Source: a virus | Taxonomy: Duplodnaviria; Heunggongvirae; Uroviricota; Caudoviricetes | DNA length: 44,004 nt | Virus record (IMG/VR): IMGVR_UViG_2579778670_000004 | Direction: 5' to 3' (one strand) | Part shown: in pieces, positions 19,969 to 43,304 of the stretch | Layout of the letters: every line of letters begins with the position of its first letter | Numbering within the stretch: the stretch's first letter is position 1 | Made by a program: the position numbers and the translations under genes | The notes under the pieces: model-generated | Databases searched by the model: none | Seen by the model: only the letters and a program-made list of their open reading frames with translations | What the model was told of the DNA's origin: nothing

Positions 19969-20163
19969 CTATTTTCCACCAAGGCATGAAGCCTCTGCCC
20001 CGGTTGAATCAATACAACCACCGTTCGCAGTAGTAATCTTCGTACCCGGCGCGATCATCACGTGTTTAATACTGCTGCCGTCAGCGCGAGTCGCTTCGGT
20101 GTATGTCGAATGTGTGCAGCCTGCCAGCGTGAAGAACGCGACAGCTAAGAGAAGTTTTTTCAC
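19969..20163 (-). CDS. Small lipoprotein (lysis-cassette associated; possible o-spanin-like)
   Basis: 64-aa ORF with signal peptide and lipobox LAGC, GTG start, directly downstream of the endolysin gene. Confidence 0.4.
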   Translation of the reverse strand: MKKLLLAVAFFTLAGCTHSTYTEATRADGSSIKHVMIAPGTKITTANGGCIDSTGAEASCLGGK

Positions 20164-20170
20164 GTTTTAC

Positions 20171-20650
20171 CTACGCTTCTGAGATAGATTTCTCAGCATT
20201 CACCAATGGAAGTGATTGTGGAACATCCGTTTGACCTGCTGGCCAGCGGTAGCCTGTTACGCGGGAACGAGGAAAAGCTTTGATATTTACTTCATCTGCC
20301 TGGTTGCCCCCCAAAATCATTAAATCCCCGGCGGCATTTTTCCCGACAACAAAGCCGACGTGACCACCGCCAGACCGAGACAGAATAGCAATGCATCCAT
20401 AGGCGGGTTCCTTCAGTTCATTACCCCAATCGAGATAAGAATTCGCAGACTCAAAACGCGTTGAGCGAATACCCGCACGTTCCAGCATTGCCCCGGTGAA
20501 AGCAGCGCACCACGGTGTTTCGTCATCCTTAATGCCGCCGCGTTTGATATCTTTCCAGTACTGCACAATTTCTGCAGCATGTTGCTTCCCTTTCATTTCC
20601 CGAATGCCGAGGTTTTTTCGAGCCTCGATTAGCCATTTAGGATCCGTCAT
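20171..20650 (-). CDS. Endolysin-like peptidoglycan hydrolase (Cys-His peptidase type, CHAP/NlpC-P60-like)
   Basis: 159-aa ORF after two membrane-protein genes; candidate catalytic Cys (WCAAF) and His (GGHVGF). Confidence 0.5.
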   Translation of the reverse strand: MTDPKWLIEARKNLGIREMKGKQHAAEIVQYWKDIKRGGIKDDETPWCAAFTGAMLERAGIRSTRFESANSYLDWGNELKEPAYGCIAILSRSGGGHVGFVVGKNAAGDLMILGGNQADEVNIKAFPRSRVTGYRWPAGQTDVPQSLPLVNAEKSISEA

Positions 20651-20922
20651 TACCTGTCTCCTGTTATTTTTGAAATATTCCCTCGTGCCCGCCAGACAGC
20701 AATACAGATGGTGAGGTTGAGAAAGAACTCTGCGGGATCAACCTGCGTATATTTCCCGTAAAAAATTCGTAGGGCTATCCACGCAGCAGACAGAATCGCG
20801 AGGTAAGCAGTTAGTGAGATGAAAAAACGATAGCGGCCTGTTTTTTGAAAAAACATCAACCGTAGTGCCAACATCAGACAAATAATTGCATTGGCATTGA
20901 TGAGGACAGAGTGCAGGGTCAT
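20650..20922 (-). CDS. Holin-like small membrane protein
   Basis: 90-aa ORF with about three hydrophobic helices, between holin and endolysin. Confidence 0.45.
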   Translation of the reverse strand: MTLHSVLINANAIICLMLALRLMFFQKTGRYRFFISLTAYLAILSAAWIALRIFYGKYTQVDPAEFFLNLTICIAVWRARGNISKITGDR

Positions 20923-21305
20923 TATTTCATCCCCTTATCTGATTTCCATAAACGAGCTTGTGACATGATCCGCAACAGTGATGTAACGCTGATTACTGAT
21001 GCAACCAGTGCACCAATGGCGGGAGAGACTTTTACTGTTACGGGAGGGTTCAGGTGACTCAGCACCGCGTTCAGAATACCGGTAATGATGGCTGACGCTG
21101 TCTCAGCGCAATACACACCGCCAACAAACGAAATGAGTGCGAAAATAACCTGCTTCCAGAATCGATGCTGCCCGGACGACAACACATAGAGAGCTGCGCC
21201 TGCCAGCGCACAGATCATCACTGCAGGTGTTGCCTCAGGAAATAACGCAGCAAACGTCACCCCCGCCGAGCCAGCAGCAACGCCAGCGGTTAGAGGTTCA
21301 GACAT
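20922..21305 (-). CDS. Holin (putative)
   Basis: Multi-TM small protein; start set at the internal ATG 21303..21305, which has an AGGA Shine-Dalgarno, rather than the longer track ORF to 21386. Confidence 0.45.
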   Translation of the reverse strand: MSEPLTAGVAAGSAGVTFAALFPEATPAVMICALAGAALYVLSSGQHRFWKQVIFALISFVGGVYCAETASAIITGILNAVLSHLNPPVTVKVSPAIGALVASVISVTSLLRIMSQARLWKSDKGMK

Positions 21306-21320
21306 GATTTTTCCTGATTC

Positions 21321-21350
21321 AGAAACGACAAAACCCCGCCGTGGCGAGGT
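21321..21350 (-). terminator. Intrinsic terminator between Q-like gene and holin (tR'-like)
   Basis: On the minus strand CCTCGC-CACG-GCGGGG hairpin (21334..21349) followed by a U-rich tract. Confidence 0.4.
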
Positions 21351-21417
21351 TCTTAGAAATTTGGCAACATACCAAATTAGCGTCAAATATGGCCTATTTT
21401 GTTCGTTTTTGCAAGCA

Positions 21418-22089
21418 TTATACGCAAACGTCGTCTAAATGGTTCTGATAATGATGCAAAGTTGCAAGAAGTGCCACTTCATCAAGTGCTCTCACCGCCT
21501 CTTTCATTCCTACCCAGTGCAGGGAGTATGTTTCGCACCAGGTGGAACGAGAAACCGACAGCATTCCTGCTAGGGTAGATCCGGCCATCTCCTTAAAATC
21601 CTCGCGTTTATTTGCTGCTGCGACCGCCTGCACGGACAACCACACCAACGAAAGCAGGCGCTTAACTACTTTTCTCTGAGTTGACGCGGGGATGTTTCCT
21701 TTATAGCGACTCCAGACAGCCTCACAAATAGCTGTTTGGTGTTTGAATGCCAGGTTACCACCGTAGCAATAACGCAACCACGCTTGCTGACTTGCATCCA
21801 GCGAGTTCACAGAACGCCGCCAGGATGAATCAGCAAATTCAAAATCACTCATCGGCGGCGCGGGGCGACGTCTGCTGAAACTTTCCAGAGCGTAAACTGG
21901 CGTAACCAGAGCATCAACGGTCCGGTCCTCCAGCTGCACACGGTGAATATGTTTGCGTGGGTATGCGTTTTTGTCTGCCGGTGGGTGCTCACACAATGCT
22001 TCCAGTTGCCCCTTAGAACCACCAGACAAATCCCGCAATGCAGCGCGCAGTTTTATGCGGGTATATTCCAATAAATACTCGTTACTCAT
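21418..22089 (-). CDS. Putative late-gene antiterminator (Q-like)
   Basis: 223-aa ORF immediately upstream of the terminator and lysis genes; assignment by position, not by a recognised motif. Confidence 0.35.
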   Translation of the reverse strand: MSNEYLLEYTRIKLRAALRDLSGGSKGQLEALCEHPPADKNAYPRKHIHRVQLEDRTVDALVTPVYALESFSRRRPAPPMSDFEFADSSWRRSVNSLDASQQAWLRYCYGGNLAFKHQTAICEAVWSRYKGNIPASTQRKVVKRLLSLVWLSVQAVAAANKREDFKEMAGSTLAGMLSVSRSTWCETYSLHWVGMKEAVRALDEVALLATLHHYQNHLDDVCV

Positions 22090-22382
22090 CAGATAAACTC
22101 CTCATCGCGCCAGATAGCCAGTGTTCTGAAAACTCCCTCAGCGTGCATCAACAACAATGAGTCGTGCTCGTAATCCGTTTTTGTACGTCCGTCGATGGCA
22201 TCGTGACACGCACTGCAGGCGATAGCGCCCTGCATATCGTGAGGTTTGATGGCTGTGCCGCACGTTCCGGCGAGACGATAATGAGCCAGTACGCTGGTTT
22301 CAGGATTGTGATTGCACACACCGGGGATACGCACAGTACAAGCGCGACTGCGTGCAGCTTTTCTCAGGTCGATTTTTTTCAT
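22089..22382 (-). CDS. YbcO-like DUF1364 protein (putative nuclease)
   Basis: 97-aa ORF; motifs RIPGVCN.NPETSVLAH and IACSACHD.ID closely match E. coli prophage YbcO as remembered. Confidence 0.65.
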   Translation of the reverse strand: MKKIDLRKAARSRACTVRIPGVCNHNPETSVLAHYRLAGTCGTAIKPHDMQGAIACSACHDAIDGRTKTDYEHDSLLLMHAEGVFRTLAIWRDEEFI

Positions 22383-22975
22383 GATGTGTAATCCAGCAGC
22401 TGCGCGGCGGCATTTTCAGCGGCCTCCTGAGAGGCAAATGTGCGGAACAAAATATAATTCCACAGCACATCTAAAACGGCTGAATACAGTTGACCGAACT
22501 CAAGATCGTCCATCGCTGCAAACGAGATTGAACGAGGTACGCGCATCAAACTGCCGTCTGGCATCTGATGAACGTCATAAAACCCAGCTTCCATAATCGC
22601 CCATGCGCGAAACGCCTCGAACGACTTCACCGCACTGATACTCCCCGCGCGCTTTTCCGACTCATCGAGAAGATACTGATCAGCCAGCTCTGCCATGACA
22701 TCACCGTGTCCACCGTAATACGCCAGTAACTTAACGTAGCCGTGAACCAGTTCGCGCTCCGCAGGAGAAATAGCCCCTCCGGACGGATGCCAGTAATCAA
22801 AGCCCAGGTTGAGAAGTGAGAAAAATTTACGATGAAACGCGGGATTACGCGCCTGTTTGAAATCTGCATACACAACAGCACCTGGTTTGACTCGTTCAGT
22901 CAACCAGCGTTGCGTGTCTGGTGTCGCGGGTATTAGCGAACCGCCGGATACCCTGATAAATGAATGCTGCGCCAT
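22379..22975 (-). CDS. Conserved lambdoid nin-region protein (possibly DUF1367 family)
   Basis: 198-aa ORF coupled by a 4-bp overlap to the YbcO-like gene. Confidence 0.35.
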   Translation of the reverse strand: MAQHSFIRVSGGSLIPATPDTQRWLTERVKPGAVVYADFKQARNPAFHRKFFSLLNLGFDYWHPSGGAISPAERELVHGYVKLLAYYGGHGDVMAELADQYLLDESEKRAGSISAVKSFEAFRAWAIMEAGFYDVHQMPDGSLMRVPRSISFAAMDDLEFGQLYSAVLDVLWNYILFRTFASQEAAENAAAQLLDYTS

Positions 22976-23052
22976 GGTTAACTCCAGGTGGCGCGGCAGT
23001 GTTCAGAAAATGATGCCGGGTGTTCAATCCAGCACCGATATTATACCGTGTT

Positions 23053-23232
23053 TTACGCGTCAGGGGGTGTAATAGTATATCCAGCTATTTCTGCCAACTC
23101 GAGAAACGCCATCAGGCTGGCAATCCGCTCATCATCGGTCAGAACACGCACACCAACGATGTGTCCGTCCTTACGCTTGATAACAGCCCGGCATGTTTCC
23201 GGTAGTTCGCCTATAGATTCTTGAATATTCAT
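23053..23232 (-). CDS. Small protein downstream of a LexA box (putative SOS-inducible factor)
   Basis: Track ORF 23053..23253 begins at TTG; the in-frame ATG at 23230..23232 is the more likely start (59 aa). A consensus LexA box lies about 25 bp upstream. Confidence 0.35.
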   Translation of the reverse strand: MNIQESIGELPETCRAVIKRKDGHIVGVRVLTDDERIASLMAFLELAEIAGYTITPPDA

Positions 23233-23254
23233 GTCTTCCCCCCAATGCCACAAC

Positions 23255-23270
23255 CTGTATATTTATACAG
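23255..23270. promoter_or_regulatory. LexA (SOS) box CTGTATATTTATACAG
   Basis: Perfect CTGT-N8-ACAG with AT-rich spacer, palindromic, in the promoter region of the 23053..23232 gene. Confidence 0.6.
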
Positions 23271-23383
23271 TATTTTATGGCATTTGTCATAACGCCAAAT
23301 ACAATGAGGGAATAATGAACAATTATATTCACGTCGTGAATTTTATTAAACGGTTTTATAGGGGATTAAACCGTTTATGGTCA

Positions 23384-24025
23384 TTATTTATCACTCCTGT
23401 AAATTGGAATTAACCATTTTCTAATCGTCGACGCTGCAGGTGGGTCAGAGTATTTCGCCACAAAAATACCGGATATGTATTGCACGCCACGCGATAATGG
23501 CGCTGTCGGGTTTTCAGTAAAAAAACGATCAGCCAGTTCAATGGCTTCGCTTTTTAATCTGTGCTGTGGTCGTCCTCCGCCCTTTGTTCCCAGGTATCGC
23601 GCCAGTTGTTTGAAACGGTAGGCGATGATTAACGGTCGCATCATCATATTGAAAAAATCGCGGGCATCGTTGTCAGCGCCTTGCGCTATCAACAGTGCAA
23701 AAAACAGATACGGGATTATGTACACTTCAGGAGATATACGAACCCGTTCACAAGTTGGTGGAGCCAACTCAATAAGTAAGTCAGCCAGCGGATTCCCCTT
23801 TTCTCCACGTTTGTAATAGCGATACAGCGGCCCGATATCAAGTTCACTCACGTCGATTTCAGGATGCCCGGCAACGACTGTACGTATCTCTTCTGCCAGA
23901 GCGTCAAATATTGCCCCGGTCCGTTCAAGATAGAGCCTCCGGGTCGAACCGCGATCATCCAACGCCCGTAACATATCTAACCGGCTAACGAAAGTTTCAG
24001 GCCAGTCCTCATAGAAGGTTTTCAT
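23384..24025 (-). CDS. Hypothetical cargo protein (unknown function)
   Basis: Start placed at the Met with GAGGT Shine-Dalgarno (MKTFYEDW...), 213 aa; no recognisable motif. Followed on its strand by a 9-bp inverted repeat AAACGGTTT/AAACCGTTT at about 23,342..23,370. Confidence 0.45.
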   Translation of the reverse strand: MKTFYEDWPETFVSRLDMLRALDDRGSTRRLYLERTGAIFDALAEEIRTVVAGHPEIDVSELDIGPLYRYYKRGEKGNPLADLLIELAPPTCERVRISPEVYIIPYLFFALLIAQGADNDARDFFNMMMRPLIIAYRFKQLARYLGTKGGGRPQHRLKSEAIELADRFFTENPTAPLSRGVQYISGIFVAKYSDPPAASTIRKWLIPIYRSDK

Positions 24026-24268
24026 AATTACCTCGAATAATAAAAACTGCACTATTTGCACAATTTATTATTCGTTTTCACGCCGCTGAGTTCTATAAAA
24101 AAGAAAAAACCTCCGAGGCAGGGTTTTGTTATGGCTCGTTAAATCATCATCCAACTTTTTAGACTGAACGGTGATACTTGCAAATATTTGAAAATATGGG
24201 CTGGAACCCTATCTTATGATGTGCCTGGTAATTTATATTGTTGGGTCTTTATATCATGAGGAATCACT

Positions 24269-24502
24269 ATGGGTACGTTAGGCAACCAGCCGTGCAGAAG
24301 TCGTTATGAGTTCGATGATTTTAATTTAGCCAATCGAGCTGCGGCTCTTACTAAGTTAGCAAAAGAAACTGGTGTATCGGTGGATACCTTAATCAAACTT
24401 GAAATTGCTATGCAACTGAATCGGCTCAACTCCATCCTTATCGAAAACGGTGACAAGATGGACGAGAATCTGGCAGGTATTGGCGAGATACTGCAGAAGT
24501 GA
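24269..24502 (+). CDS. Small protein, possible degenerate HTH regulator
   Basis: 77-aa ORF with GAGGA Shine-Dalgarno; segment LAKETGVSVDTLIKLE resembles an XRE-type helix-turn-helix; followed by hairpin CCCCTC-TTCT-GAGGGG. Confidence 0.4.
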   Translation: MGTLGNQPCRSRYEFDDFNLANRAAALTKLAKETGVSVDTLIKLEIAMQLNRLNSILIENGDKMDENLAGIGEILQK

Positions 24503-24809
24503 GAGTAGCCCCTCTTCTGAGGGGTTGCACATTTAAAATATTAAGGGCGGTCTTCTTCACGTACACAGTCACCTGGTCGAATCGTTCACGCATACTGAGT
24601 ACAAAAAATCTCAACGATAAGATCAGGTTAGACCTGTATTTTCCAGAAACATATAGACGCCTAAAAAAACACTAAACTCATGATTATCATGTATGTTTTT
24701 ACTGGAAACATTGAACCATCCACAATACAGCGTAAAAAGCAAGCAATTCACAAGATTTTAAAGTGATTTATCTGGAAGACTTTACTACTAACAGTTAATA
24801 TCGTACCAG

Positions 24810-24828
24810 AAGTGCAGAATTTGCACTT
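24810..24828. promoter_or_regulatory. 19-bp perfect palindrome AAGTGCAGAATTTGCACTT (candidate operator)
   Basis: Perfect inverted repeat about 75 bp upstream of the metallopeptidase start codon. Confidence 0.4.
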
Positions 24829-24900
24829 TTACAGGAATGTGGTACGGAACATGCTGTCTATATTTCAACCAATAATCGTAATGCAGTAACTGGAGGAGCT

Positions 24901-25389
24901 ATGGCTACCAACCCAAGAGAGCACGCCCGGCGAGTGCTGGACACGTTCTGGTGCGGGCGTGGTTTCCCTGTTGATCCAGCGAAAATTGCTCACGACATGG
25001 GATTAGATGTTTTTATTACCGATCTTCCTGGGAAAGTTTCTGGCGCACTGATTAAACAAAAAGATCAAGATCCAGCGATCTTTCTAAACAGTGATGACAA
25101 CAAAGTTCGTCAACGTTTTTCATGTGGGCATGAGTTGGGGCATTACATCGCCCGGCAAGCATCGCATAGCGATGAATATGAGTACGTTGATTTACGTGGC
25201 GAAACCGCAAGCGCCGGAACGCATCCTGATGAAATTTTTGCAAACAAGTTCGCAGCAGAACTTCTGATGCCGGTAGATGAGGTCAGAAAACTGCACGCTG
25301 ACGGTCAACCAAGTTATATAATGGCGCATTATTTTGGCGTATCTGACGATGCGATGACTTATCGTTTAAAGAACTTGAGGTTGGGGTAA
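24901..25389 (+). CDS. ImmA/IrrE-family zinc metallopeptidase (HExxH)
   Basis: 162-aa ORF with HELGHY motif and overall ImmA/IrrE (COG2856-type) pattern; GGAGGA Shine-Dalgarno. Confidence 0.7.
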   Translation: MATNPREHARRVLDTFWCGRGFPVDPAKIAHDMGLDVFITDLPGKVSGALIKQKDQDPAIFLNSDDNKVRQRFSCGHELGHYIARQASHSDEYEYVDLRGETASAGTHPDEIFANKFAAELLMPVDEVRKLHADGQPSYIMAHYFGVSDDAMTYRLKNLRLG

Positions 25390-25398
25390 CGCTTTAAA

Positions 25399-26004
25399 AT
25401 GCCATCGGATGACGATTTTAACAGCCGTTTCAAACAGGAAGTAGCACGCAGACTGAAGGATTCCCTCAACCTACACCGTCAGTTAGCAGAAGAGGTTGAG
25501 CCGGAGGACGATGAAACTCCGGTTCAGTCTCCTGACGAAGCTTCACCTCAGCCAAAGGTTTCGCACGCCCCCAAAAAAACGGCTGTCCGTATTCGCGGAA
25601 TAGCCAGAAAAAGAGCTGCCGAAGCTCGCAAAATGGCTGTAGCTGCGTCTAGCAAAAGAATTCCAACTGCTACACCCTCTCAACAAGTCACCCGTACTGA
25701 GAGTAAAATCTTGACCGAGTTCACATCTGTGAAACAGGTGAATTCACTTGATACCGAGCATGAGCGCAAACAACTCAACAACAAAGATTTTGAAGCAGAA
25801 ATCGCTCTAAAAAAACGATACGGGAAATGGTTCCTGATTATCCTTGCTTTCCAACTTCTGATAATGAATGGTGTATTTATTGCCGACGGCGCAGGTAAGC
25901 TGGAATTTGAGGATTTAACACTACAGTTGTACATGGGCGGTACTTTGACAGAGGTATTCGGCCTCGTGCTGGTCGTGACAAAATACCTTTTTAAACGCAA
26001 GTAA
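25399..26004 (+). CDS. Membrane protein with charged N-terminal region and two C-terminal transmembrane helices
   Basis: 201-aa ORF 9 bp after the peptidase stop; about 140 aa Lys/Arg/Glu-rich, then FLIILAFQLLIMNGVFIA and TLTEVFGLVLVVTKYLF helices. Confidence 0.55.
   Translation: MPSDDDFNSRFKQEVARRLKDSLNLHRQLAEEVEPEDDETPVQSPDEASPQPKVSHAPKKTAVRIRGIARKRAAEARKMAVAASSKRIPTATPSQQVTRTESKILTEFTSVKQVNSLDTEHERKQLNNKDFEAEIALKKRYGKWFLIILAFQLLIMNGVFIADGAGKLEFEDLTLQLYMGGTLTEVFGLVLVVTKYLFKRK
25933..26004 (+). repeat. Direct repeat copy 1 (3' end of membrane-protein gene)
   Basis: About 72 bp, roughly 90 percent identical to 29354..29425. Confidence 0.7.
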
Positions 26005-26248
26005 CTCTCTCGGTCCAACAGTCTTTCGAAGGCCCTGATCAAAGGGCCTTGATAAATTAGCAGTGCGTTGAAAACAGATAGTTATTCCCATCAGTTCCAA
26101 CGTAATACACATCAAAAAAATCACCATTCTTTTGCTCTAACGTCAACACCTACCCTTAAAAAAATAATTCTCCAAGAATGAGAAAGTTATTGTGTGTATT
26201 AGATAAGATATGAGCTGACACATCTATGGCGTGGAGCCAAATTTAATA

Positions 26249-26282
26249 TGACAGTCCGCTCTGTGCCATAAGCGGACTGTCA
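26249..26282. other. Perfect 11-bp inverted repeat (TGACAGTCCGC / GCGGACTGTCA) with 12-nt loop; possible terminator or protein-binding site
   Basis: Seen directly in sequence, in the intergenic space downstream of both convergent genes. Confidence 0.4.
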
Positions 26283-26466
26283 ATAAACAGATTCACTTGT
26301 AAATCTTGAAGCTATACATATTTACTTTCAATGATAAATAAAAGAACTATCCAAAAATCACTGAGAGCATATTTTAACTAACCCTCCGCTACTATTAACA
26401 TAAATTTCACCCAACCATAATTAAATTGATACATATAGCAACTTACCTTGATACGAATCATCTGGG

Positions 26467-27165
26467 TTATATTTTTCCATATTTTTTTCCGTCAAATCGA
26501 ATCATGCCAGGATCAAGAAAATTAATTAAATCGATTAACGCGTGCTGTATTCTGATTAGCCTTTCTTTATAAATTCCGATATCTCTTGTCATATTTATCA
26601 CTTCATTGTTTAAATCTAAAAAAAATGGCTCATTGATAAAGCAATTTTCCTTTGTGAAACTGCCGTAACCTATGCAATCAAATCCAGTATCTGTTGATAT
26701 CAGCATCTTTTCTGCAATAGCTCTCTGCTCTCCTATGAAAAACATAAAATACTGACCAAAGACGTCTGTTTGGATTAATGAGTTAATATTGTTCTGTAAT
26801 CTAATAAACTCCCTCATTTTTTTATTTTTTTCTAGGCTAAGGTATTGAATGTCTATGCGGGCAGCTTCTGTCCATGCAAAAAACTGGGAAAAAAGAAAAA
26901 CAGTATTGTTGATAACATAATCTTGTTGGCGCTTATTCCCATTATGATAAAACTCTTCAATGAACCCCAATTCTAATATATTATAAATACGGCTTTGTAA
27001 GTCTGAAGCTGAGCGAATTAACGGTTCAATATAGTACTGATGTTTTCTCCTTACATCCAGTGATTCATTGAGCTTGTTTATTCTATTCTGATTATAAGTA
27101 GATATAGCAATAGAGATTATAGCTATTGCACCACTAATAAAGCTTGAAATTAATGCCGTACCCAT
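26467..27165 (-). CDS. Hypothetical protein with N-terminal transmembrane anchor (unknown function, AT-rich cargo)
   Basis: 232-aa ORF; N-terminal hydrophobic helix (ALISSFISGAIAIISIAIS); low-GC codon usage unlike the phage backbone. Confidence 0.5.
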   Translation of the reverse strand: MGTALISSFISGAIAIISIAISTYNQNRINKLNESLDVRRKHQYYIEPLIRSASDLQSRIYNILELGFIEEFYHNGNKRQQDYVINNTVFLFSQFFAWTEAARIDIQYLSLEKNKKMREFIRLQNNINSLIQTDVFGQYFMFFIGEQRAIAEKMLISTDTGFDCIGYGSFTKENCFINEPFFLDLNNEVINMTRDIGIYKERLIRIQHALIDLINFLDPGMIRFDGKKYGKI

Positions 27166-28352
27166 CTAAAAGTCCTTTGATTCTTGCTTGGTTAACAAAA
27201 TGACATAATTTTATTTAATGCCATAACAACTTAACAATATATCATAATATGATTATTATGGTGTAGCTTGTCGCATCTACGCTCCATTACAAACAGATGT
27301 AAGATATAACCTATATGTTTTAGCCAGCAAATTCGAAAGCATTCAAAGTAGTCTCATCGAACTCTCGAAACCCTATGTCTTCGGGTATAAAATATTTAAA
27401 TCCATTTGCATAATATCGACTCATGTTTATTATATTCTCCCCATTCACCATTAAGATTTGACATTATTTTCAACAATCGGTTATTGCAAGATTGAAATAT
27501 ATTTTTACTTGACACAATATTCCATGTAGCCCAGCGATTCGACTTACCCCCAACTATACGGACAATCTAAATTAAATCGATGATTTTTTGATACATTCTC
27601 CTCTCTCCATTACTTTATGTTTTTGTTCCCCAAAAATACCTTGCTCTCTAAAAAATAATTGTTCTTTAAGTTCAAAATCGAGATCTACATGAGCGTTAGA
27701 TACAAAGCTAATATGTTGAAATGTCTTTCCCCCCCCATAACGGCATTGTTATCTAAACTATGTTACACAAATATAATATTACCCTTTCAACGTAATCCAA
27801 GAATAAGATTAATGCCATTATATATATCATAAATATGATATTTTGTATATTTTTATCATTTAGCCTTGATTGTACTAGGTGTACTCTCAACGAAGTAGGG
27901 AAAGTCTGTTCCTCGCTCACAGCTGCCCTTCAGTAAGCGAAAAAATGCCTACTCGGTGCCATATACAGCCATTGTTATTAACAGCAGGGAATAATTCAAA
28001 ACTGAAATTAAATATCTACCTTTTACAGTAGAAATAGTTCCTCCAGGACACTATCCATTGCCGGGCACAATCACTCGGGGTATAACGATATAAAATATGT
28101 TCATGATAGTGCAGGTTCGTATATTAAGTTCAGCAGCGAAAACATGCCTTACAGGTTTCCGGTTTTGGGAGCGTCGTTACAGGATCCTGCGCATACCGTT
28201 CCCATCTGTTGAATTAAAGGTTTCACAGCCTTTGCCGATATCACCTTTTACCTTACCTGTGATGCGTTCAGTGCTCAGCGTTGTTTACTGTAGCTCTCGG
28301 GACTGATTACAGACCGCGTCTTAAAAACCAATCCTTACTCTAAAGGGAATTC

Positions 28353-29276
28353 ATGAGATTAAAATACTCAGTACTCTTACTCGCCATTGCCCTTACAGGC
28401 TGTGATAACAAAAAAGATGAGATCGGTTGTTCTTCGGAAATAACCCAGTCAGCTCTCATGGATTTATTAAAAAAATCTGCTTATGAAGGACTCTCTGAAC
28501 AGGTCGATAAATACCCTGATGTCACTAATCAGACCAAACGAAGCACACTGGACAAGATCAAACTAGCCATCTCTGAGATCTCCACAACATCAAGTGACAC
28601 GGGCAGCACAATGAAAACTTGTGAAGGGACCGTGACGATGACTCTATCTGCGAACGAGTACGTCCAGCTTTCAGATGCTTACAGAAAGAATTTTAATCGT
28701 AATCTCGATAAGCAAATGGAAAGCCTGTTTTTGGAGAACAACGCAAACGCCTTTTCAAAACGTATCACCTACACCGTGCAGGCGACCGACGATCAGAAAA
28801 ACGTTTTTGTAAAAACCTCTACTGATAATCCGATATCAGTGGGCGCCGCTTTACTGACATCGCTTTCCATTATCACCCCGATCGTTGAGCAGCAGAAAAT
28901 CCAGCAGGCTAAGGATGCCCAACAGAGTCAAATTGAAGCGGAACAACAGGTGCAACTCAGGGCGCAAGAACAGGCTAAGTATGAGGCGGAGAAGCAAATA
29001 GAGAGACAGGCACAACTTCAGCCGCAAAAAGCTGACAACCTTGATCAGTCCCGAATGGCATTTGCGAATGCCGACTCTGATTTGAGTACCGTCTGGAGCA
29101 AGTTAACCCCGGCGAAGAAAAAAGATTTGCTGCCTTCTCAGCGTCAGTGGATCAAAACTAAGGATGCTATGTGCGGTAAAGTTTCAATGCAGGGAACAGA
29201 TGCTGAAGTCAAGAAAATGGTCGACTGCCAGACGCAAATGACCCTTTCAAGAATCGCTTTCCTCAGAAACCAATAA
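28353..29276 (+). CDS. Lipoprotein with C-terminal DUF1311 (LprI-like) domain
   Basis: 307-aa ORF; signal peptide plus lipobox LTGC; Gln/Glu-rich coiled-coil linker; C-terminal pattern QRQWIKTKDAMC...DCQTQMTLSRIAFL fits the DUF1311 signature as remembered. Confidence 0.55.
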   Translation: MRLKYSVLLLAIALTGCDNKKDEIGCSSEITQSALMDLLKKSAYEGLSEQVDKYPDVTNQTKRSTLDKIKLAISEISTTSSDTGSTMKTCEGTVTMTLSANEYVQLSDAYRKNFNRNLDKQMESLFLENNANAFSKRITYTVQATDDQKNVFVKTSTDNPISVGAALLTSLSIITPIVEQQKIQQAKDAQQSQIEAEQQVQLRAQEQAKYEAEKQIERQAQLQPQKADNLDQSRMAFANADSDLSTVWSKLTPAKKKDLLPSQRQWIKTKDAMCGKVSMQGTDAEVKKMVDCQTQMTLSRIAFLRNQ

Positions 29277-29353
29277 CTGAAGTCTCCTTCAAGCTGGCGC
29301 CAGGTGTTAACCTGGTGCCAGCTTAGTCATCAAGTGCATATGTAACTGTTTTA

Positions 29354-29425
29354 TATGGGCGGTACTTTGACAGAGGTATTCGGTCTCGTGCTGGTCGTGG
29401 TCAAATACCTTTTTAAGCGCAAATA
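29354..29425 (+). repeat. Direct repeat copy 2 (displaced duplicate of the membrane-protein gene 3' end)
   Basis: Core ATGGGCGGTACTTTGACAGAGGTATTCGG is identical to copy 1 and would encode the same C-terminal peptide (MGGTLTEVFGLVLVV..KYLFKRK). Confidence 0.7.
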
Positions 29426-29450
29426 GAGTATTTCCGCCCCAAACAACCTG

Positions 29451-30269
29451 TCAAAATGCTGAATTAGCAACGGATATAGCCGACTTTTTCCCCATTACCA
29501 TCAATTTATCCAGTGTCATACTTCGCAGATTGTCGCTGTGGATCACCAGATACCCTGCCCGCTCAGCGATCTCTTTGAAAGCGTCAAAGGTCATCAGATG
29601 TTCGCCTTTGGCAACATGGCGCATCCCGGTCACTTTTCCATTTTTGATAGTGGTGATAAAAGAAAAATCTGGAATGGTTGGGTGATTTTCATCGAGTAGC
29701 AGGCAGTGGATGTATTCAATCGCCTCTAACATTTGCGTCTGTGACAGTTGTTCTATGTGAGAGACGGCGAAGCGTTGATGAATCATGGTGTAGGCATCGG
29801 GATACATCATGCCTTTCTTGCCGACCAGTATATTAACGGCATCACGCAAGGGAGTACGGTCATCGGTAGTTGTACTCCGCCTCTCTGGACGCTGGCTAAA
29901 ATAACAATCTTCCAGCTTTTCGAAAACTTCCCAGGCCTGTTCTGTTTCCAGCATTTTGGCATGGCGAGCTGCGCCGCGTTCTGTCCAGAGAATGAGGGAT
30001 CGGGTATGTTTAGCAACTGACTGACTATCTGTCAGTCTGTTTTTGAAGTCGCGTAATTCATTACCTTCCAGCTTAAAAAAATGCTTTCCTACGACAAATC
30101 TGGCGATGTTGCGCTTGAAGTTTTGCTGGATACCATTTACTTCCGTGCCATACAAACTGGCAAGCAATTCAGTAGTGATGACGGGAAGTTGGTTATGATG
30201 TAGCGGAGAAAGGGATTCCGCAGATATTTGGACTGTCATCGCAGTGGCCTCACTTAGTGTTTTTTTCAT
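29451..30269 (-). CDS. Phage antirepressor (ORF6N-type N-terminal domain, KilAC-type C-terminal domain)
   Basis: N-terminal pattern LPVITTELLASLYG...NFKRNIARFVVGKHFFKLEG matches antirepressor domains as remembered. Start moved to the ATG at 30267..30269; the track ORF begins at a TTG at 30287. Confidence 0.6.
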   Translation of the reverse strand: MKKTLSEATAMTVQISAESLSPLHHNQLPVITTELLASLYGTEVNGIQQNFKRNIARFVVGKHFFKLEGNELRDFKNRLTDSQSVAKHTRSLILWTERGAARHAKMLETEQAWEVFEKLEDCYFSQRPERRSTTTDDRTPLRDAVNILVGKKGMMYPDAYTMIHQRFAVSHIEQLSQTQMLEAIEYIHCLLLDENHPTIPDFSFITTIKNGKVTGMRHVAKGEHLMTFDAFKEIAERAGYLVIHSDNLRSMTLDKLMVMGKKSAISVANSAF

Positions 30270-30511
30270 CACCACCAGCGACGCCAATCATCTGGTGGTG
30301 AGCTGTGCAGGGTTGGCGTAACCGGCTAAGTGAACCCGGCGCTTCCACAGAAGCCCCCACACAGCCCACCATAATGCGAATGTGGCCGTGCCTAACACAT
30401 AAAAAAACCGCTAACGCGGCTATGCGTCACTTAGATATCCGGGACGCCAATCCCGGCAACCGATTTTGCGGCTGCGCGGAAACTATAGCCCCGGACTTTT
30501 TCTAAGTCAAT

Positions 30512-30733
30512 TCAATCAACTTCAAACCTCCGGTGTTCACATTCCATACACTCAACGGGAACATCATCGCGATGCAAGTCCACATATCCGACCCGCTTAT
30601 ACAACTCAATAATGTCCGGTAACGTGACCAGATGTTTTTCCGGTTCCAACACCTCAGCCCGGGTTACTTTGTAATCTGAAATATAGAGCACTATCCGCCC
30701 GTTCCGTGGTAACTCCAGTTTATCGCCAAACAT
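30512..30733 (-). CDS. Hypothetical phage protein
   Basis: 73-aa ORF in the early-right operon. Confidence 0.35.
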   Translation of the reverse strand: MFGDKLELPRNGRIVLYISDYKVTRAEVLEPEKHLVTLPDIIELYKRVGYVDLHRDDVPVECMECEHRRFEVD

Positions 30734-30920
30734 GTCCTTTCCCTCCGGGAAACCAATGATATTGACGATATTACACCCACAACGATTCGTTTTACGTCAC
30801 TCCGCAATCACCATACATCCGTACCAATCCGTACATTCCCACCACAAAAACGATATTTGACAGGCACTGGTAATAGATTTTTAACGCGTGCTATTGCCTT
30901 GCGACGTATTTTCAATTCAC

Positions 30921-31145
30921 TCATACAGCCTCCCTGCTCTCAAACGGACGAATATTGGTTGGTTCTCCACACGGAATAGCCCAACCCAGCCAGGTAAATA
31001 TTTTCAGGTCACACATCGCGTCATACCGTTCGCCAGGATTCACATCCACCATGCTGCAGGCAATTTCATATTGTTCACCATTATCAGTCAGTGCGATCTG
31101 GTCATTAATAAACCGGGGCACAAATGCAAGAAAAAGTTCTTTCAT
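30921..31145 (-). CDS. Hypothetical phage protein
   Basis: 74-aa ORF, 4-bp overlap with the upstream gene. Confidence 0.35.
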   Translation of the reverse strand: MKELFLAFVPRFINDQIALTDNGEQYEIACSMVDVNPGERYDAMCDLKIFTWLGWAIPCGEPTNIRPFESREAV

Positions 31146-32136: not shown

Positions 32137-33579
32137 TTAAAATTCATTTGTGCGAGAATTATCGCTACGGGAATAACGTTTATTTTTTTCTGAGCGGTCG
32201 TTGGTAAGGCGATAAACCTCCTCATCGCTGATATCAATAACTGAGCCATTTTTCATCAGGGCATAGGCTGTTCCCGATGGTCCTTCGCGGTTCAGACGTA
32301 GCAACATTTCCATGAGATTTGGGTCGGCATTTTCGTTATAAACAGCATCACGATAGAGGCCAATCCAGACATCGCAATCTTGTTCGATCTGCCCGGTATC
32401 TTTACTGTCGCTCGGGTTAGGCCGCTTATCGGCACGTTCTTCAAGCTTTCGGTTGAGTTGCGTCAGCAGGACCACAACACAATCCAGCTCTTTTGCCAGG
32501 TTCTTCAAACCGGTTGTGATATCGCCATACGCAATATCCCTACGCTCTGCCGATTCGGTCTTCATCAGCGTCAAATAGTCAATTGCCACCAGGCCAACCG
32601 AGCCACGCATCCGTTTAACTTTTCGACATTCAGCGACAATATGCGCAAGGGTTACACCTGCCGTGCTGTCAATCATCATGTTGGATTCGGCAATCTCCCC
32701 CGCCTTTGCTATTGCGAGACTCAATTCAGATTCATCGTTAGGGCCAAGATAAAAAATCTCCGAATTGACCTTTGCTTCCTGCGCAACCATGCGTTCAATG
32801 AGACTTCTGTCAGTCATTTCCAGGCTAAATACCAGCGTCGGCAAACGATGATTCAGAGCAAAATGCACCGCAATTTTATTAAACGCGGCTGTCTTGCCCA
32901 TTTTTGGCCGGGCACCAATAACGACCAATGAACCTCTTAACGCCTGCTTTGGTGCCATTAAGCGATCAAGGCTTTCGATTCCGAGCGTTAGTCCGGCTGC
33001 ATGTGCTGGATCATTGAAACGGCGCTCAAGGTCATCTATCCAGTCATCGACGACTTCACTTGCCGGACGCAAACCGCCCTTATGCCCGGTACGGGAATGT
33101 TCGGCCACCTGCCCAATCACTTGCTGAACGGCGGTGATCCTGTCAGTAGCAGTCATATCTGCAGGCTGGATCATAATCTCCAGACAAGAATTCAACTTTT
33201 CCACGGCATAACGAAGAATGGCTTTTTCACGTACAATTTTCGCGTAGTTGACCATTGAGGCCGGAATCGCCGCCTTACTCATTTCAGCCAGGTATGCGAA
33301 TCCCCCCACGCGCTCATACAGCCCCTTCGATTCCATCAGTTCGGTCAGTGTTATCAGGTCAGTTGGTTTATCAGCTTGAAATAATCCTTTGATCTCCCGG
33401 TAGATAACCTGATGCGCATTGATATAAAACGTTTCCGGTTTCAGTAACGCAAATACCGCATTGGTTCTGTCGTGGTCGGTATTCAGCATCAGACAGCCCA
33501 GAACAGCCTGTTCTGCGTCAACGCTGTACAGTGCAATCGCGTTATTTATCATTTGCGCGTTCTTCCTTGACCGAAACAT
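32137..33579 (-). CDS. Replicative DNA helicase (DnaB family)
   Basis: 480-aa ORF with DnaB-like N-terminal domain and Walker A (GARPKMGKT) in the C-terminal RecA-like domain. Confidence 0.85.
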   Translation of the reverse strand: MFRSRKNAQMINNAIALYSVDAEQAVLGCLMLNTDHDRTNAVFALLKPETFYINAHQVIYREIKGLFQADKPTDLITLTELMESKGLYERVGGFAYLAEMSKAAIPASMVNYAKIVREKAILRYAVEKLNSCLEIMIQPADMTATDRITAVQQVIGQVAEHSRTGHKGGLRPASEVVDDWIDDLERRFNDPAHAAGLTLGIESLDRLMAPKQALRGSLVVIGARPKMGKTAAFNKIAVHFALNHRLPTLVFSLEMTDRSLIERMVAQEAKVNSEIFYLGPNDESELSLAIAKAGEIAESNMMIDSTAGVTLAHIVAECRKVKRMRGSVGLVAIDYLTLMKTESAERRDIAYGDITTGLKNLAKELDCVVVLLTQLNRKLEERADKRPNPSDSKDTGQIEQDCDVWIGLYRDAVYNENADPNLMEMLLRLNREGPSGTAYALMKNGSVIDISDEEVYRLTNDRSEKNKRYSRSDNSRTNEF

Positions 33580-35092: not shown

Positions 35093-35323
35093 TTAAGCTG
35101 CTTCCGTTTTAGGCAAGCTGTCATCTGGGTTTGGGTAAAGATCCGGTCTAAGATCATGAGGGGTCACGCGCCATTCAAGAGCTTCAGATGTGCGCAAAAC
35201 CTCTTCACCGGGAACCCGTCCTTTGAACCAGAGGCTTACCGTTTGTGGTTTTTTCCCTAATCGCCGCCCTAACTCGGATTGACTCATTACGGAAAGAATT
35301 TTGTCTTGCAGTTGTTTATCCAT
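35093..35323 (-). CDS. Cro-like HTH regulator (YdaS-like)
   Basis: Start set at the ATG with AAGGAG Shine-Dalgarno (MDKQLQDKILSVMSQSELGRRLG...), 76 aa; divergent from the repressor gene. Confidence 0.5.
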   Translation of the reverse strand: MDKQLQDKILSVMSQSELGRRLGKKPQTVSLWFKGRVPGEEVLRTSEALEWRVTPHDLRPDLYPNPDDSLPKTEAA

Positions 35324-35348
35324 ATGGACTCCTTGTGTCCGCGTCATC

Positions 35349-35387
35349 ATTACAAACAATAACTGTAATTACAAATTATATTTGCAA
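35349..35387. promoter_or_regulatory. Operator region between divergent cro-like and repressor genes
   Basis: Inverted repeats ATTACA-N9-TGTAAT (35349..35369) and TTACAAAT-TAT-ATTTGCAA (35369..35387). Confidence 0.45.
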
Positions 35388-35406
35388 TGCTCCCTACAAT
35401 TAAACC

Positions 35407-35835
35407 TTGTATCCTTACGGTATGAACACAAAAACGAAAAACATGGCTTTTGCTAGCCGACTACAACGGATTCTAAAAGACTTAGGCTGGTCTCAATCTG
35501 AGTTAGCTCGCCATATTGGGGTTACGGCTCAATCAGTTCAGGCATGGTGTAATGGGGTAACTCCAAGAAAAGATAAATTAGACAAGCTAGCAAAAGTGAC
35601 CGGATACCCTGTTCATTTTTTCTTCATGAATGAAGGGGAATATTTGGATGAATCCACACTACACCCGGGTAATTACAATCAAGAACTAACCCCGCAAGAA
35701 CAGGCTCTACTGCAACTATTCAGAGGACTGCCTGAGAGCGAAAAAAATAAATTAATCAATGAGCTAAAAGAAAAAAGAGAGCACTTCGATCTACTGCTAA
35801 AAGAACTACTTGAAGCCAAAAACCAGACAAAATAG
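35407..35835 (+). CDS. CI-like prophage repressor (XRE-family HTH, no S24 peptidase domain)
   Basis: 142-aa ORF; N-terminal HTH (LGWSQSELARHIGVTAQSVQAW); C-terminal short coiled-coil segment only. Confidence 0.6.
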   Translation: MYPYGMNTKTKNMAFASRLQRILKDLGWSQSELARHIGVTAQSVQAWCNGVTPRKDKLDKLAKVTGYPVHFFFMNEGEYLDESTLHPGNYNQELTPQEQALLQLFRGLPESEKNKLINELKEKREHFDLLLKELLEAKNQTK

Positions 35836-35953
35836 TTCAGTTCAAATTTCCAGGCCAGCCGCTGCTGGCATGCAACTTTCCCCTAACACAAAAACACCTT
35901 TACACAGTGAATATTTTTTTGCCCCTCACTACAAATTATTTTTTAAAAACACA

Positions 35954-35982
35954 TTGACCATTACAAATACAAATTGTAAAGT
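35954..35982 (+). promoter_or_regulatory. Sigma70-like promoter with embedded operator palindrome (early-left promoter candidate)
   Basis: TTGACC, 17-bp spacer, TAAAGT; spacer contains TTACAAATACAAATTGTAA, related to the operator half-sites at 35369..35387. Confidence 0.4.
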
Positions 35983-36845
35983 CACTTTCATCAACAACGC
36001 TTACCCAGCGGCAGTTGTTCAGAAACACGTTCTGACAGCCGGAAAGACGGCACCAAATTTTGCGCGTCGGCGCCAACACGGTGACAGAGGGAAAGACTTC
36101 ACCGGCATATGGCACATGTGTCGAAGCGGTCTGGATGGAAGCGGAGCCTTAACGCGTTGTCTCCATAGCAGGTAGCCGGAATGTGCAAGCCACAGCCAGG
36201 TATGAGCGATTGATTCACCATCAAGGCGATACGGTGTGACCACCAGGGAAGAGTCCTGGCTACAACACGAGAGCGCACTTCATCGACTCAACTTTGAGCT
36301 TTGTCGTTAAATTTTGAAATGGCGGAGTGCGCTCCCGGTTGTGGTGAACAGGTGTTTAACGGGAACTCCCTGCCCGTTACCCGGTTCGATTCCGGGCGCC
36401 CATCATCAATTTGCTGTGTTTAGTCTTTGCCCAGTCCGCACGATGGGCCATTTTTTCACACAGCCAGGTTTTATCGCTGTGCCTGAGTCCCCAACAGGAG
36501 AGGCCAAACCCGCAGCGTGACACCAGGGAAAGACCGGAGGAAGTACCACGCCTGACCAGCGTTGACCATGAGCCTGACCAGCTCAAAACAGGAAAGACCA
36601 GCCCGGGCCTGACCAGCCCTGTACGGTCGTAATGGAAACATAACGACGCCGGAAACGTAACCGGCACCCTTTAGATAGCAAAAGACCCGCACAAGGCGGG
36701 CCAGTTACCCCGAACGGCGACCAAACCATTCGGATTTATCACAAGTGACCAAACTTGTGATGAGGAAAGACCAACGACACTGACGCTATGGAAGCTGATC
36801 AATATTCGCTGATCGGCTCTGAGTATACATTACCAAGGAGTCGCT

Positions 36846-43002: not shown

Positions 43003-43089
43003 TGGTACCCGGAGCGGGACTTGAACCCGCACAGCGCGAACGCCGAGGGATTTTAAATCCCTTGTGTCTACCGATTCCACCATCCGGGC
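43003..43089 (-). tRNA. leuZ: tRNA-Leu (anticodon UAA)
   Basis: Reverse complement reads GCCCGGATGGTGGAATCGGTAGACACAAGGGATTTAAAATCCC...GGGTTCAAGTCCCGCTCCGGGTACCA, a canonical 87-nt tRNA-Leu with encoded CCA. Confidence 0.97.
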
Positions 43090-43101
43090 TCGGGAAAAAA
43101 G

Positions 43102-43175
43102 TGGAGGCGCGTTCCGGAGTCGAACCGGACTAGACGGATTTGCAATCCGCTACATAACCGCTTTGTTAACGCGCC
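43102..43175 (-). tRNA. cysT: tRNA-Cys (anticodon GCA)
   Basis: Reverse complement GGCGCGTTAACAAAGCGGTTATGTAGCGGATTGCAAATCCGTCTAGTCCGGTTCGACTCCGGAACGCGCCTCCA. Confidence 0.97.
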
Positions 43176-43228
43176 AAATTCTTCAGGCCTTTCAGCCAGA
43201 CATCCGCTGACGCCGATGCCTTTTAAAC

Positions 43229-43304
<76 letters not shown>

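Follow-up and report, generated by a model that had tools for sequence, protein, structure and literature searches.

The 44,004-nt window analysed here (IMG/VR record IMGVR_UViG_2579778670_000004, Caudoviricetes; all positions count from its first letter) is a lambdoid prophage lying on the minus strand with its late genes at low coordinates, and it carries a 6.2-kb stretch of unusual DNA (23254-29450) between its antirepressor-like (Ant-like) ORF6N gene and its nin genes. We find that 24577-29449 is probably the current filling of a prophage defence or exclusion hotspot, that is, of a site at which exchangeable accessory ('moron') cassettes are inserted between the Ant-like ORF6N gene and a block made up of open reading frame (ORF) 1, the nin genes and Q. 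The filling consists of three units: a gene pair encoding an ImmA-like peptidase and a transmembrane (TM) protein, a cassette with ORF5, and a block with an LprI-type lipoprotein gene. The hotspot belongs to a known kind, the prophage accessory and defence hotspots, of which the lambdoid morons and the P2 and P4 prophage defence hotspots are examples (Rousset et al. 2022, PMC9122126; PMC13586616), and it shares with these its own hairpins, a deviating base composition, presence/absence polymorphism, swapping at fixed junctions and the exchange of cargo between different kinds of element. Unlike those examples, neither the position between an Ant-like gene and ORF1-nin nor the anchor gene ORF1 has been described as a lambdoid hotspot in the literature that we searched, and a literature search for accession WP_000536231 returned nothing. 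The hotspot structure, its junctions, its modularity, the homologies and the gene neighbourhoods are secure; from location, architecture and analogy we infer that the three units present here would act against phages.

A first-pass annotation, made from the sequence without database searches, had described 23254-29450 as an AT-rich cargo island that interrupts the early-right operon, and its physical description holds. All six ORFs are present in the ORF list, four of them on the plus strand within a minus-strand operon, and the GC content is 40.4% compared with 48.3% for the window and 49-50% for the flanks. Only in 26012-27951 does the GC content fall strongly, to 32-33%, and no other 2-kb stretch of the window is lower. 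We also recovered the long noncoding gaps (398, 462 and 1187 nt), the palindromes (24034-24074 and 24174-24197, inverted repeats I4 and I5) and the direct-repeat pair, which is 81 nt long (25923-26003 and 29345-29425), 89% identical and far beyond chance. A further direct repeat, D2 (24 nt, 75%), was judged to be chance, and the only tandem repeats in the island are trivial ones. What the comparison with sister prophages overturned is the idea of the island as one unit, given that it resolves into several independently exchanged units.

Sister prophages, meaning those with the same late, nin and replication genes, were compared with the window by blastn, which placed the junctions at 24125-24132, 24576/24577, 24638/24639, 26011/26012, 27951/27952 and 29449/29450. 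The prophages of RM10042 and MEI3O-23 have 22001-24132, 24639-26011 and 27952-31000 in common with the window and differ from it only in two slots: slot A, whose left junction at about 24133 follows from their homology breaking off at 24125-24132, and slot B (Table 1). Sister locus L020 has 20000-24576 and 29450-31145 in common with the window, and a single 226-aa gene there replaces 24577-29449. SE11 and LD91-1 retain ORF1, LprI and ORF6N with about 7 kb of other genes between them. The LprI block (27952-29344) is found in the RM10042, MEI3O-23, SE11, L029 and L040 variants and not in L020 or L035. Searching with ORF1 gave 12 loci in IMG/VR and one locus only in species-representative genomes, and with the IMG/VR loci included there are about ten distinct arrangements upstream of ORF1 homologues. 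Presence/absence polymorphism at fixed junctions among collinear phages, the criterion for a moron or accessory hotspot, is thus found here. On these alignments the part that really varies is 24577-29449, and it is pieced together from independent units. At least five other cargo sets occupy the same place on the same backbone, which bears out the earlier claim that accessory cargo is lodged between the nin genes and the antirepressor-like gene; the comparison with related prophages that had been proposed shows most of the island to be variable and assigns ORF1 to the conserved flank.

Part of the history of this mosaic can be read from the 81-nt repeat. Its right-hand copy consists of the last 26 codons of a second TM gene and their stop (LFYMGGTLTEVFGLVLVVVKYLFKRK and stop), has a further stop codon just 5' of these codons and is present in all variants that have the LprI block, with a similar remnant in sister locus L021. 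By its sequence, this TM-gene remnant is a recombination scar. Because it abuts ORF6N, an ImmA-TM module once lay directly beside ORF6N, and the 3.3 kb between the repeat copies (slot B and LprI) came in by later recombination. The filling would have been built stepwise from independent units, most of them ending in a hairpin. Terminator-like hairpins number 12, about twice the 6.6 +/- 2.3 expected from shuffles; hairpins are found 3' of ORF2 (24509-24524, directly 3' and read from the sequence), of the TM gene, of ORF5 and of the LprI gene (29292-29323, directly 3', with a 14-bp stem). Most units are transcribed against the repressed early-right operon, and so they may be expressed from the repressed prophage in a lysogen. 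Rfam found no family inside the island, either in 22500-30500 at E up to 1 or in the whole window at the gathering score.

Table 1 Features of the hotspot and its flanks, by position in the window
Feature	Position	Strand	Remarks
Lysis genes	20171-21386		
Q	21418-22089	-	
YbcO/DUF1364	22089-22382	-	
DUF1367	22379-22975	-	
Small ORF	23053-23253	-	
ORF1, 213 aa, all-alpha	23384-24025	-	Conserved anchor of the nin/Q side
Divergent ORF1/ORF2 intergenic region	24026-24268	.	Palindromes 24034-24074, 24174-24197
Slot A	24133-24638		ORF2 here; 79-92-aa gene on the other strand in RM10042/MEI3O-23
ORF2, 77 aa	24269-24502	+	phrog_5550 match; content of slot A
ImmA/IrrE-type M78 zinc metallopeptidase, 162 aa	24901-25389	+	Peptidase domain only
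TM protein, 201 aa	25399-26004	+	Starts 9 nt after the ImmA stop
3' flank of ImmA-TM	26012-26204	.	Hairpin 26030-26049
Slot B	26012-27951		ORF5 cassette here; 134-aa, GIY-YIG/T5orf172 and 65-aa genes in RM10042/MEI3O-23
AT-rich (32% GC) cassette	26205-27935	-	Common with the Z/fun region of phage P2-EC58; most of slot B
ORF5, 232 aa	26467-27165	-	One N-terminal TM helix, then a helical-bundle domain
Lipoprotein, 307 aa	28353-29276	+	Signal peptide and lipobox, C-terminal LprI/DUF1311 domain
TM-gene remnant, last 26 codons and stop	29345-29425	+	Right copy of the 81-nt repeat; abuts the ORF6N stop
ORF6N-domain, antirepressor-like (Ant-like) gene	29451-30287	-	Pfam ORF6N, E 1e-21; right-hand hotspot flank

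The defence reading draws on what the hotspot holds in sister prophages. At the same slot, LD91-1 and SE11 carry full-length PD-T4-3 (E 5.7e-138), a published defence gene by PADLOC's label, and sister locus L035 has a PD-T4-3 gene 98.5% identical to it beside ImmA-TM. Among 39 further sister cargo proteins PADLOC found matches to PDC-M25A/B, NsnA/B and an AriA/AbiL/HEC-01-like ATPase; matches were assigned to genes, by BLAST or motif, for PD-T4-3 and the P-loop ATPase only, and some of the 39 proteins lie beyond the hotspot proper, for example an SspD-like match attributed to a PAPS-reductase-domain gene in L023 (Pfam PAPS_reduct). PADLOC returned no significant match for the RM10042 cargo or for the alternative 226-aa and 182-aa cargo. 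The first-pass view of a site where anti-phage cargo accumulates is therefore upheld by defence genes such as PD-T4-3 in sister prophages; in the window itself no protein matches a validated system, and the PADLOC check that it had suggested matched no complete known defence system among the island proteins.

The sister loci with PD-T4-3, with the P-loop ATPase and its 252-aa neighbour, and with the PDC-M25A/B and NsnA/B matches are L026 11191-11997, L035 3788-4615, L029 1960-3902, L040 5340-6985 and L034 1391-5865. In a Klebsiella prophage (L018 4120-5779), the stretch upstream of the ORF1 homologue contains a gene with an AcrIF11-type ADP-ribosyltransferase domain together with a DNA pol III theta (HOT-like) gene, and these are counter-defence rather than defence cargo. 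The hotspot region holds conflict genes of both signs.

The first unit of the filling is the ImmA-TM pair. Its peptidase, recognised as ImmA-like in the first pass, matches Pfam Peptidase_M78 (PF06114) at E 7.7e-18 and has the HEXXH motif H77-E78-L-G-H81, which is invariant in homologues at 75-89% identity. Its partner, correctly described as a 2-TM protein, has hydrophobic segments at residues 142-165 and 180-198 and belongs to a family of 48 members confined to Enterobacterales. An alignment of this family (A5) shows that the N-terminal helix is conserved and is followed by a charged linker of 0-100 residues that is hypervariable, by an amphipathic segment and by a highly conserved C-terminal part with the two TM helices. 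In near-identical modules the TM protein is more variable than ImmA, its differences being concentrated in the linker and in the loop that joins the TM helices. The TM gene always stands directly 3' of a 162-aa M78 peptidase gene. We found the pair in four unrelated prophage contexts with ImmA 75-89% identical; elsewhere it adjoins the integrase of a Rac-like prophage in E. coli, and in prophages of Serratia and Enterobacter it is found between Q and holin. Judged by these neighbourhoods, the ImmA-TM pair is conserved and moves as a two-gene module among sites typical of morons. Because the loci have no conserved DNA in common upstream of it, the module is limited to the two genes; a conserved leader or small gene upstream of ImmA was ruled out, the four loci sharing only a ribosome-binding site and start codon there. 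On the other side, the 3' flank accompanies the 3' end of the TM gene in L021 (homology over 25922-26205) and is missing from RM10042, where homology stops at 26011. Hence, of the three-gene module proposed initially, the peptidase and 2-TM genes stand as a pair and ORF2, which has its own hairpin and is swapped separately, drops out.

The closest known analogue of the pair is RosmerTA (RmrT/RmrA; Millman et al. 2022; Ernits et al. 2023), in which a Zn-peptidase antitoxin is paired with diverse toxins (PMC10440598). Both are phage-borne two-gene operons that combine an ImmA/M78 Zn-peptidase protein with a small partner. RmrT of Gordonia phage Kita has a C-terminal membrane anchor and depolarises the membrane, and that pair protects against some coliphages (PMC10440598); the partner here is predicted to have two TM helices. 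However, RmrA is about 360-400 aa long with an N-terminal helix-turn-helix (HTH), whereas the protein here has 162 aa and is peptidase only: it matches 13 RmrA profiles in PADLOC (best 5.8e-12) in the peptidase part only, the matches beginning at profile positions of approximately 145-205 of 357-400, and no Pfam HTH was found in it. Given that the window peptidase lacks this defining HTH, we call the pair RosmerTA-like and not a RosmerTA member. By analogy, the two genes may form a toxin-antitoxin-like abortive-infection module working like RosmerTA, in which the Zn-peptidase would hold a small membrane-permeabilising effector in check and infection would free it, the TM protein being the predicted membrane effector or toxin.

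A second comparison is with CapH/CapP, regulators of CBASS (cyclic-oligonucleotide-based antiphage signalling system) and other defence operons (bioRxiv 10.1101/2022.04.27.489752). The best PADLOC match of the peptidase is capP (E 2.4e-25, profile positions 3-151 of 242), the small upstream ORF2 could in principle act as CapH, and variable cargo adjoins. However, the C-terminal part of the CapP profile is absent here, the peptidase is constantly accompanied by the TM protein, and ORF2, in which no HTH was detected, ends in a terminator of its own and is exchanged separately; PADLOC recognised no CBASS or other defence operon adjoining the pair. The NCBIfam spr1629 repressor/antitoxin model matches the peptidase at 6.7e-6, below its cutoff.

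ImmA cleaves ImmR in ICEBs1, and in such a switch the protease gene adjoins that of its HTH repressor substrate and is co-transcribed with it. The island could in this light be a lifecycle module, in which ImmA would be an induction protease cleaving the short CI-like repressor, the TM protein would serve lysis or injection, and ORF1 and ORF2 would regulate nin-Q, but we consider this very improbable. ImmA family proteins are classically anti-repressor proteases (PMC10440598), and the repressor is short (RefSeq 130 aa; longest ORF 142 aa, 35407-35835), by its size too short for a LexA-type S24 domain. Even so, ImmA-TM lies on the opposite strand about 10 kb from this immunity region, with the replication genes between them, its invariable partner is the TM protein and not a repressor, and the pair moves between unrelated prophage positions. 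The sister prophages L020 and SE11/LD91-1 have the same late, nin and replication genes and no ImmA-TM, and the prophage has for induction its own Ant-like gene, apparently under C4/isrK control. An induction-protease role of ImmA-TM is thus unlikely, because the module is far from the repressor, its TM partner is constant and sister prophages do without it.

The lifecycle explanation finds more to go on in ORF1, which keeps synteny with the nin region, resembles an HTH at its C-terminus and has palindromes upstream. ORF1 had been listed as an unknown cargo protein; in Klebsiella, Salmonella and E. coli prophages, however, its 60-72% identical homologues stand beside NinB/DUF1367...Q, so that the gene belongs to the conserved core of related prophages, an outcome that the first-pass annotation had itself named as speaking against cargo. 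By synteny, ORF1 is an anchor of the nin/Q region in several lambdoid prophages and not cargo. Its C-terminal domain is possibly HTH-like, and for ORF1 alone a regulatory role in the lifecycle is quite possible. The HTH that had been suspected in ORF2 finds no backing in Pfam (best match MerR, E 0.13). ORF2 is kept beside ORF1 in L020 and L021, both without ImmA-TM.

The second unit, the cassette in slot B, ties the hotspot to the P2-like phages. It is 86.7% identical over 1714 nt to positions 49-1762 of AJ512683 (P2-EC58), and at both ends the match stops within the inverted repeats, left and right, that the depositors annotated. The same cassette, at the nucleotide and protein level and including its ends, is therefore documented in both a P2 hotspot and a lambdoid hotspot, the difference being that here it sits in a lambdoid prophage between the TM gene and the LprI gene and not among P2 tail genes. 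The Z/fun locus is described as a second defence-enriched hotspot of P2-like phages (Vassallo et al. 2022, PMC9519451). ORF5, the protein described as N-terminally anchored in the first pass, does have an N-terminal hydrophobic helix and is 92.9% identical to the P2-EC58 protein. Its database name is 'lysogenic protein' (P2-EC58 ORF1: 'putative lysogenic protein'), and we found no reported function for P2-EC58 ORF1/ORF5 in the literature. The family consists of proteins of about 240 aa (290 matches) without a Pfam domain, and stand-alone homologues occur at the P2 Z position in Providencia and beside SIR2-HerA in Xanthomonadaceae. In the structure model (pLDDT, the predicted local distance difference test, 86) the N-terminal TM helix continues into the helical bundle. 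ORF5 is a candidate single-gene membrane defence or exclusion factor, and as an inner-membrane-anchored helical-bundle protein it would act at the membrane against superinfecting phage. We rejected ORF5 as a TM effector associated with defence-associated reverse transcriptases (PADLOC RTasTM): the match is weak (E 1.8e-5, 22 bits) and the island has no reverse transcriptase gene. The left end of the cassette is a 72-nt element (26205-26276) with a terminator-like hairpin of 13-bp stem (26249-26282); it occurs alone at the hotspot junction beside ORF1 in LD91-1 and also in strain GF131, and it may be a recurrent junction or terminator element.

Within the 1.2-kb gap upstream of ORF5, six-frame translation shows about 770 nt that resemble a degraded gene; a pseudo-protein assembled from the fragments matches only a 55-aa phrog and no NCBIfam model. 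The idea that this gene is the remnant of a reverse transcriptase-nitrilase partner found no support. Degraded-looking DNA of this kind (27166-27935), together with the gene remnant at 29345-29425 and insertion sequence (IS) insertions, could mean that the island is selfish or decaying, a set of addiction modules and recombination debris hitch-hiking in a clonal lineage with no benefit to host or phage; its near-100% identity over hundreds of genomes reflects clonal expansion of sequence type 131 (ST131), not independent selection. We give this explanation little credence. None of the five cargo ORFs is disrupted, conservation against the P2 copy is higher in ORF5 than in its flanks (approximately 93-95% versus approximately 80%, with indels, in the upstream 770 nt), the ImmA-TM and ORF5 families are intact across genera, and CRISPR (clustered regularly interspaced short palindromic repeats) spacers target the region, which therefore circulates on active phages.

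These spacers lie in type I-E arrays of E. coli that are directed against this prophage. One matches the opening 32 nt of the LprI gene (28353-28384) at 32/32 positions, with an ATG protospacer-adjacent motif on the protospacer strand (strain AR_0372), and most of the approximately 120 genomes in the 90-95% identity band appear to carry it. Further spacers are directed against ORF1 (23627-23660), DUF1367 (22834-22867) and ORF6N (30082-30114), and also against 22976-23008. The IS insertions comprise ISEc53 with a ClbS/DfsB gene in Ec55, at an 8-bp duplicated site (23259-23266), an IS3-family element between the ORF5 cassette and LprI (about 27900-28350) in BCE-1, and IS1 in the hotspot of 20AR0479; IS elements are also tied to the hotspot loci L003 and L027.

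The third unit encodes the lipoprotein, named 'lysozyme inhibitor LprI family protein' in RefSeq. The 307-aa protein, called a lipoprotein in the first pass, has the lipobox LTGC, read from the translation as LLAIALTG-C with Asp at +2 and Asn at +3, and matches the LprI/DUF1311 family (PF07007) over residues 225-304 with 30.8 bits against a Pfam cutoff of 22. Under the +2 rule, Asp at this position predicts inner-membrane retention, and the lipoprotein is probably retained in the inner membrane. It is laid out as an unassigned N-terminal domain, a Q/E-rich linker and the LprI domain in the C-terminal 80 residues. No tblastn match was found for it in 50,697 phage records.

LprI of Mycobacterium tuberculosis is a lysozyme inhibitor, and DUF1311 proteins include immunity proteins of type VI secretion systems (T6SS) against periplasmic cell-wall-degrading effectors, namely Etsi4 and, by prediction, Psi15; only the C-terminal 80 residues of our protein match this family, and the 200-residue N-terminal part lies outside the match. 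A phage precedent is T4 Spackle, which blocks the tail lysozyme gp5 and so keeps out superinfecting phage (PMC7677548). Both are phage-encoded envelope proteins, and the one here has a domain from a family with known muramidase inhibitors, but the two have no sequence relation. The lipoprotein may thus inhibit periplasmic muramidase-type enzymes, be they the tail lysozymes that incoming phages carry, T6SS effectors that attack the cell wall or the lysozyme of the host. The endolysin of the prophage itself is TIGR02594/CHAP-like, and a lysozyme inhibitor therefore presumably need not disturb its own lysis.

The last two of these targets lead to a different explanation, in which the island is lysogenic-conversion cargo for host fitness: LprI would guard an extraintestinal pathogenic E. 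coli host against host lysozyme or the T6SS cell-wall effectors of competing cells, and the membrane proteins would have a part in the physiology of the envelope. The inhibitors and immunity proteins just named speak for it, as do the fixation of the island in 403 complete genomes, many of them of ST131, a successful extraintestinal pathogen, and the fact that the LprI block is the most widely kept cargo unit among the variants. We nevertheless regard it as unlikely for the island as a whole, given that adjoining slots carry phage-defence genes in sister prophages, that ORF5 comes from a P2 defence hotspot and that ImmA and the TM protein form a toxin-antitoxin-like pair without an obvious virulence role. 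For the lipoprotein itself, the host-fitness and defence readings are not exclusive.

Several observations weigh against the defence and exclusion reading that we prefer. No window protein matches a validated defence system, and PADLOC gives only generic peptidase-domain matches and one weak TM-profile match. The peptidase has neither the HTH seen in RmrA nor the C-terminal portion of CapP, and its TM partner matches no RmrT model in PADLOC, nor any other profile there. Fold searches with ORF5 return only generic bundles and no informative match. Promoter-like sites are not enriched (17 versus 18.3 expected), and the annotated P2-EC58 promoter has no conserved counterpart in the window and was dropped as a candidate. 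A second hydrophobic stretch lies at residues 160-179 of the lipoprotein, and if this spans the membrane the LprI domain would be cytoplasmic. Finally, the same hotspot holds an AcrIF11-like, anti-CRISPR-like gene in Klebsiella, and location alone is no proof.

A bolder version of the defence reading, which we hold to be doubtful, makes three further claims. The 162-aa ImmA and its 2-TM partner would represent a new, minimal class of abortive-infection system in which a protease gates a membrane effector, without the HTH found in RosmerTA and with a hypervariable TM linker that either is cleaved by the protease or senses the phage; ORF5 would be a membrane defence of a new type that needs one gene only; and the 72-nt hairpin element and the conserved TM-gene 3' end would serve recombination as handles by which cassettes pass between P2-type hotspots and lambdoid ones.

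The 6.2-kb stretch is present at >=99% identity in 403 of 5,426 complete E. coli genomes, among them JJ1886 and many strains labelled O25b:H4-ST131, and the prophage family with the hotspot is best known from E. coli ST131. With the prophage carried at near-identity by approximately 400 of these genomes, largely of the pandemic ST131, its genes are part of the standing phage-resistance or envelope-protection profile of the clone, and the function of the island bears on phage therapy of a clinically important lineage. A lambdoid hotspot is now available with exact junctions and a conserved anchor gene, ORF1, and the three uncharacterised units, together with the cargo of the other variants, are cheap and well-motivated candidates for defence screens.

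Phage record ON470624.1 (vB_EcoM-705R4, 27 kb) is 100% identical at positions 24977-27112 to window 23254-25389, where the match ends at the record end. The sequence match suggests that this prophage, or one closely related to it, has been recovered in phage form.

Directly upstream of the ORF6N Ant-like gene, on the minus strand at 30291-30488, lie a C4 antisense RNA, isrK and a1/b1 target elements (Rfam scores: isrK 80.4 bits, C4 75.2 bits, c4-a1b1 52.9 bits). The C4/isrK arrangement upstream of an ORF6N gene resembles immI of P1/P7 and, by analogy, suggests that the antirepressor is under antisense-RNA control. Beyond the ORF6N gene follow small ORFs, then DnaB (32137-33579) and then the cro/repressor region near 35100-35835. 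In the next approximately 1 kb (35836-36845), from the CI-like repressor gene to the first early-left gene, RefSeq annotates no gene and Rfam gives no match at its gathering threshold; this interval contains unannotated ORFs of up to 121 aa and has a locally high GC content of 0.54. Three tRNA genes lie on the minus strand at 43006-43304, near the right end of the window and past the integrase end of the prophage.

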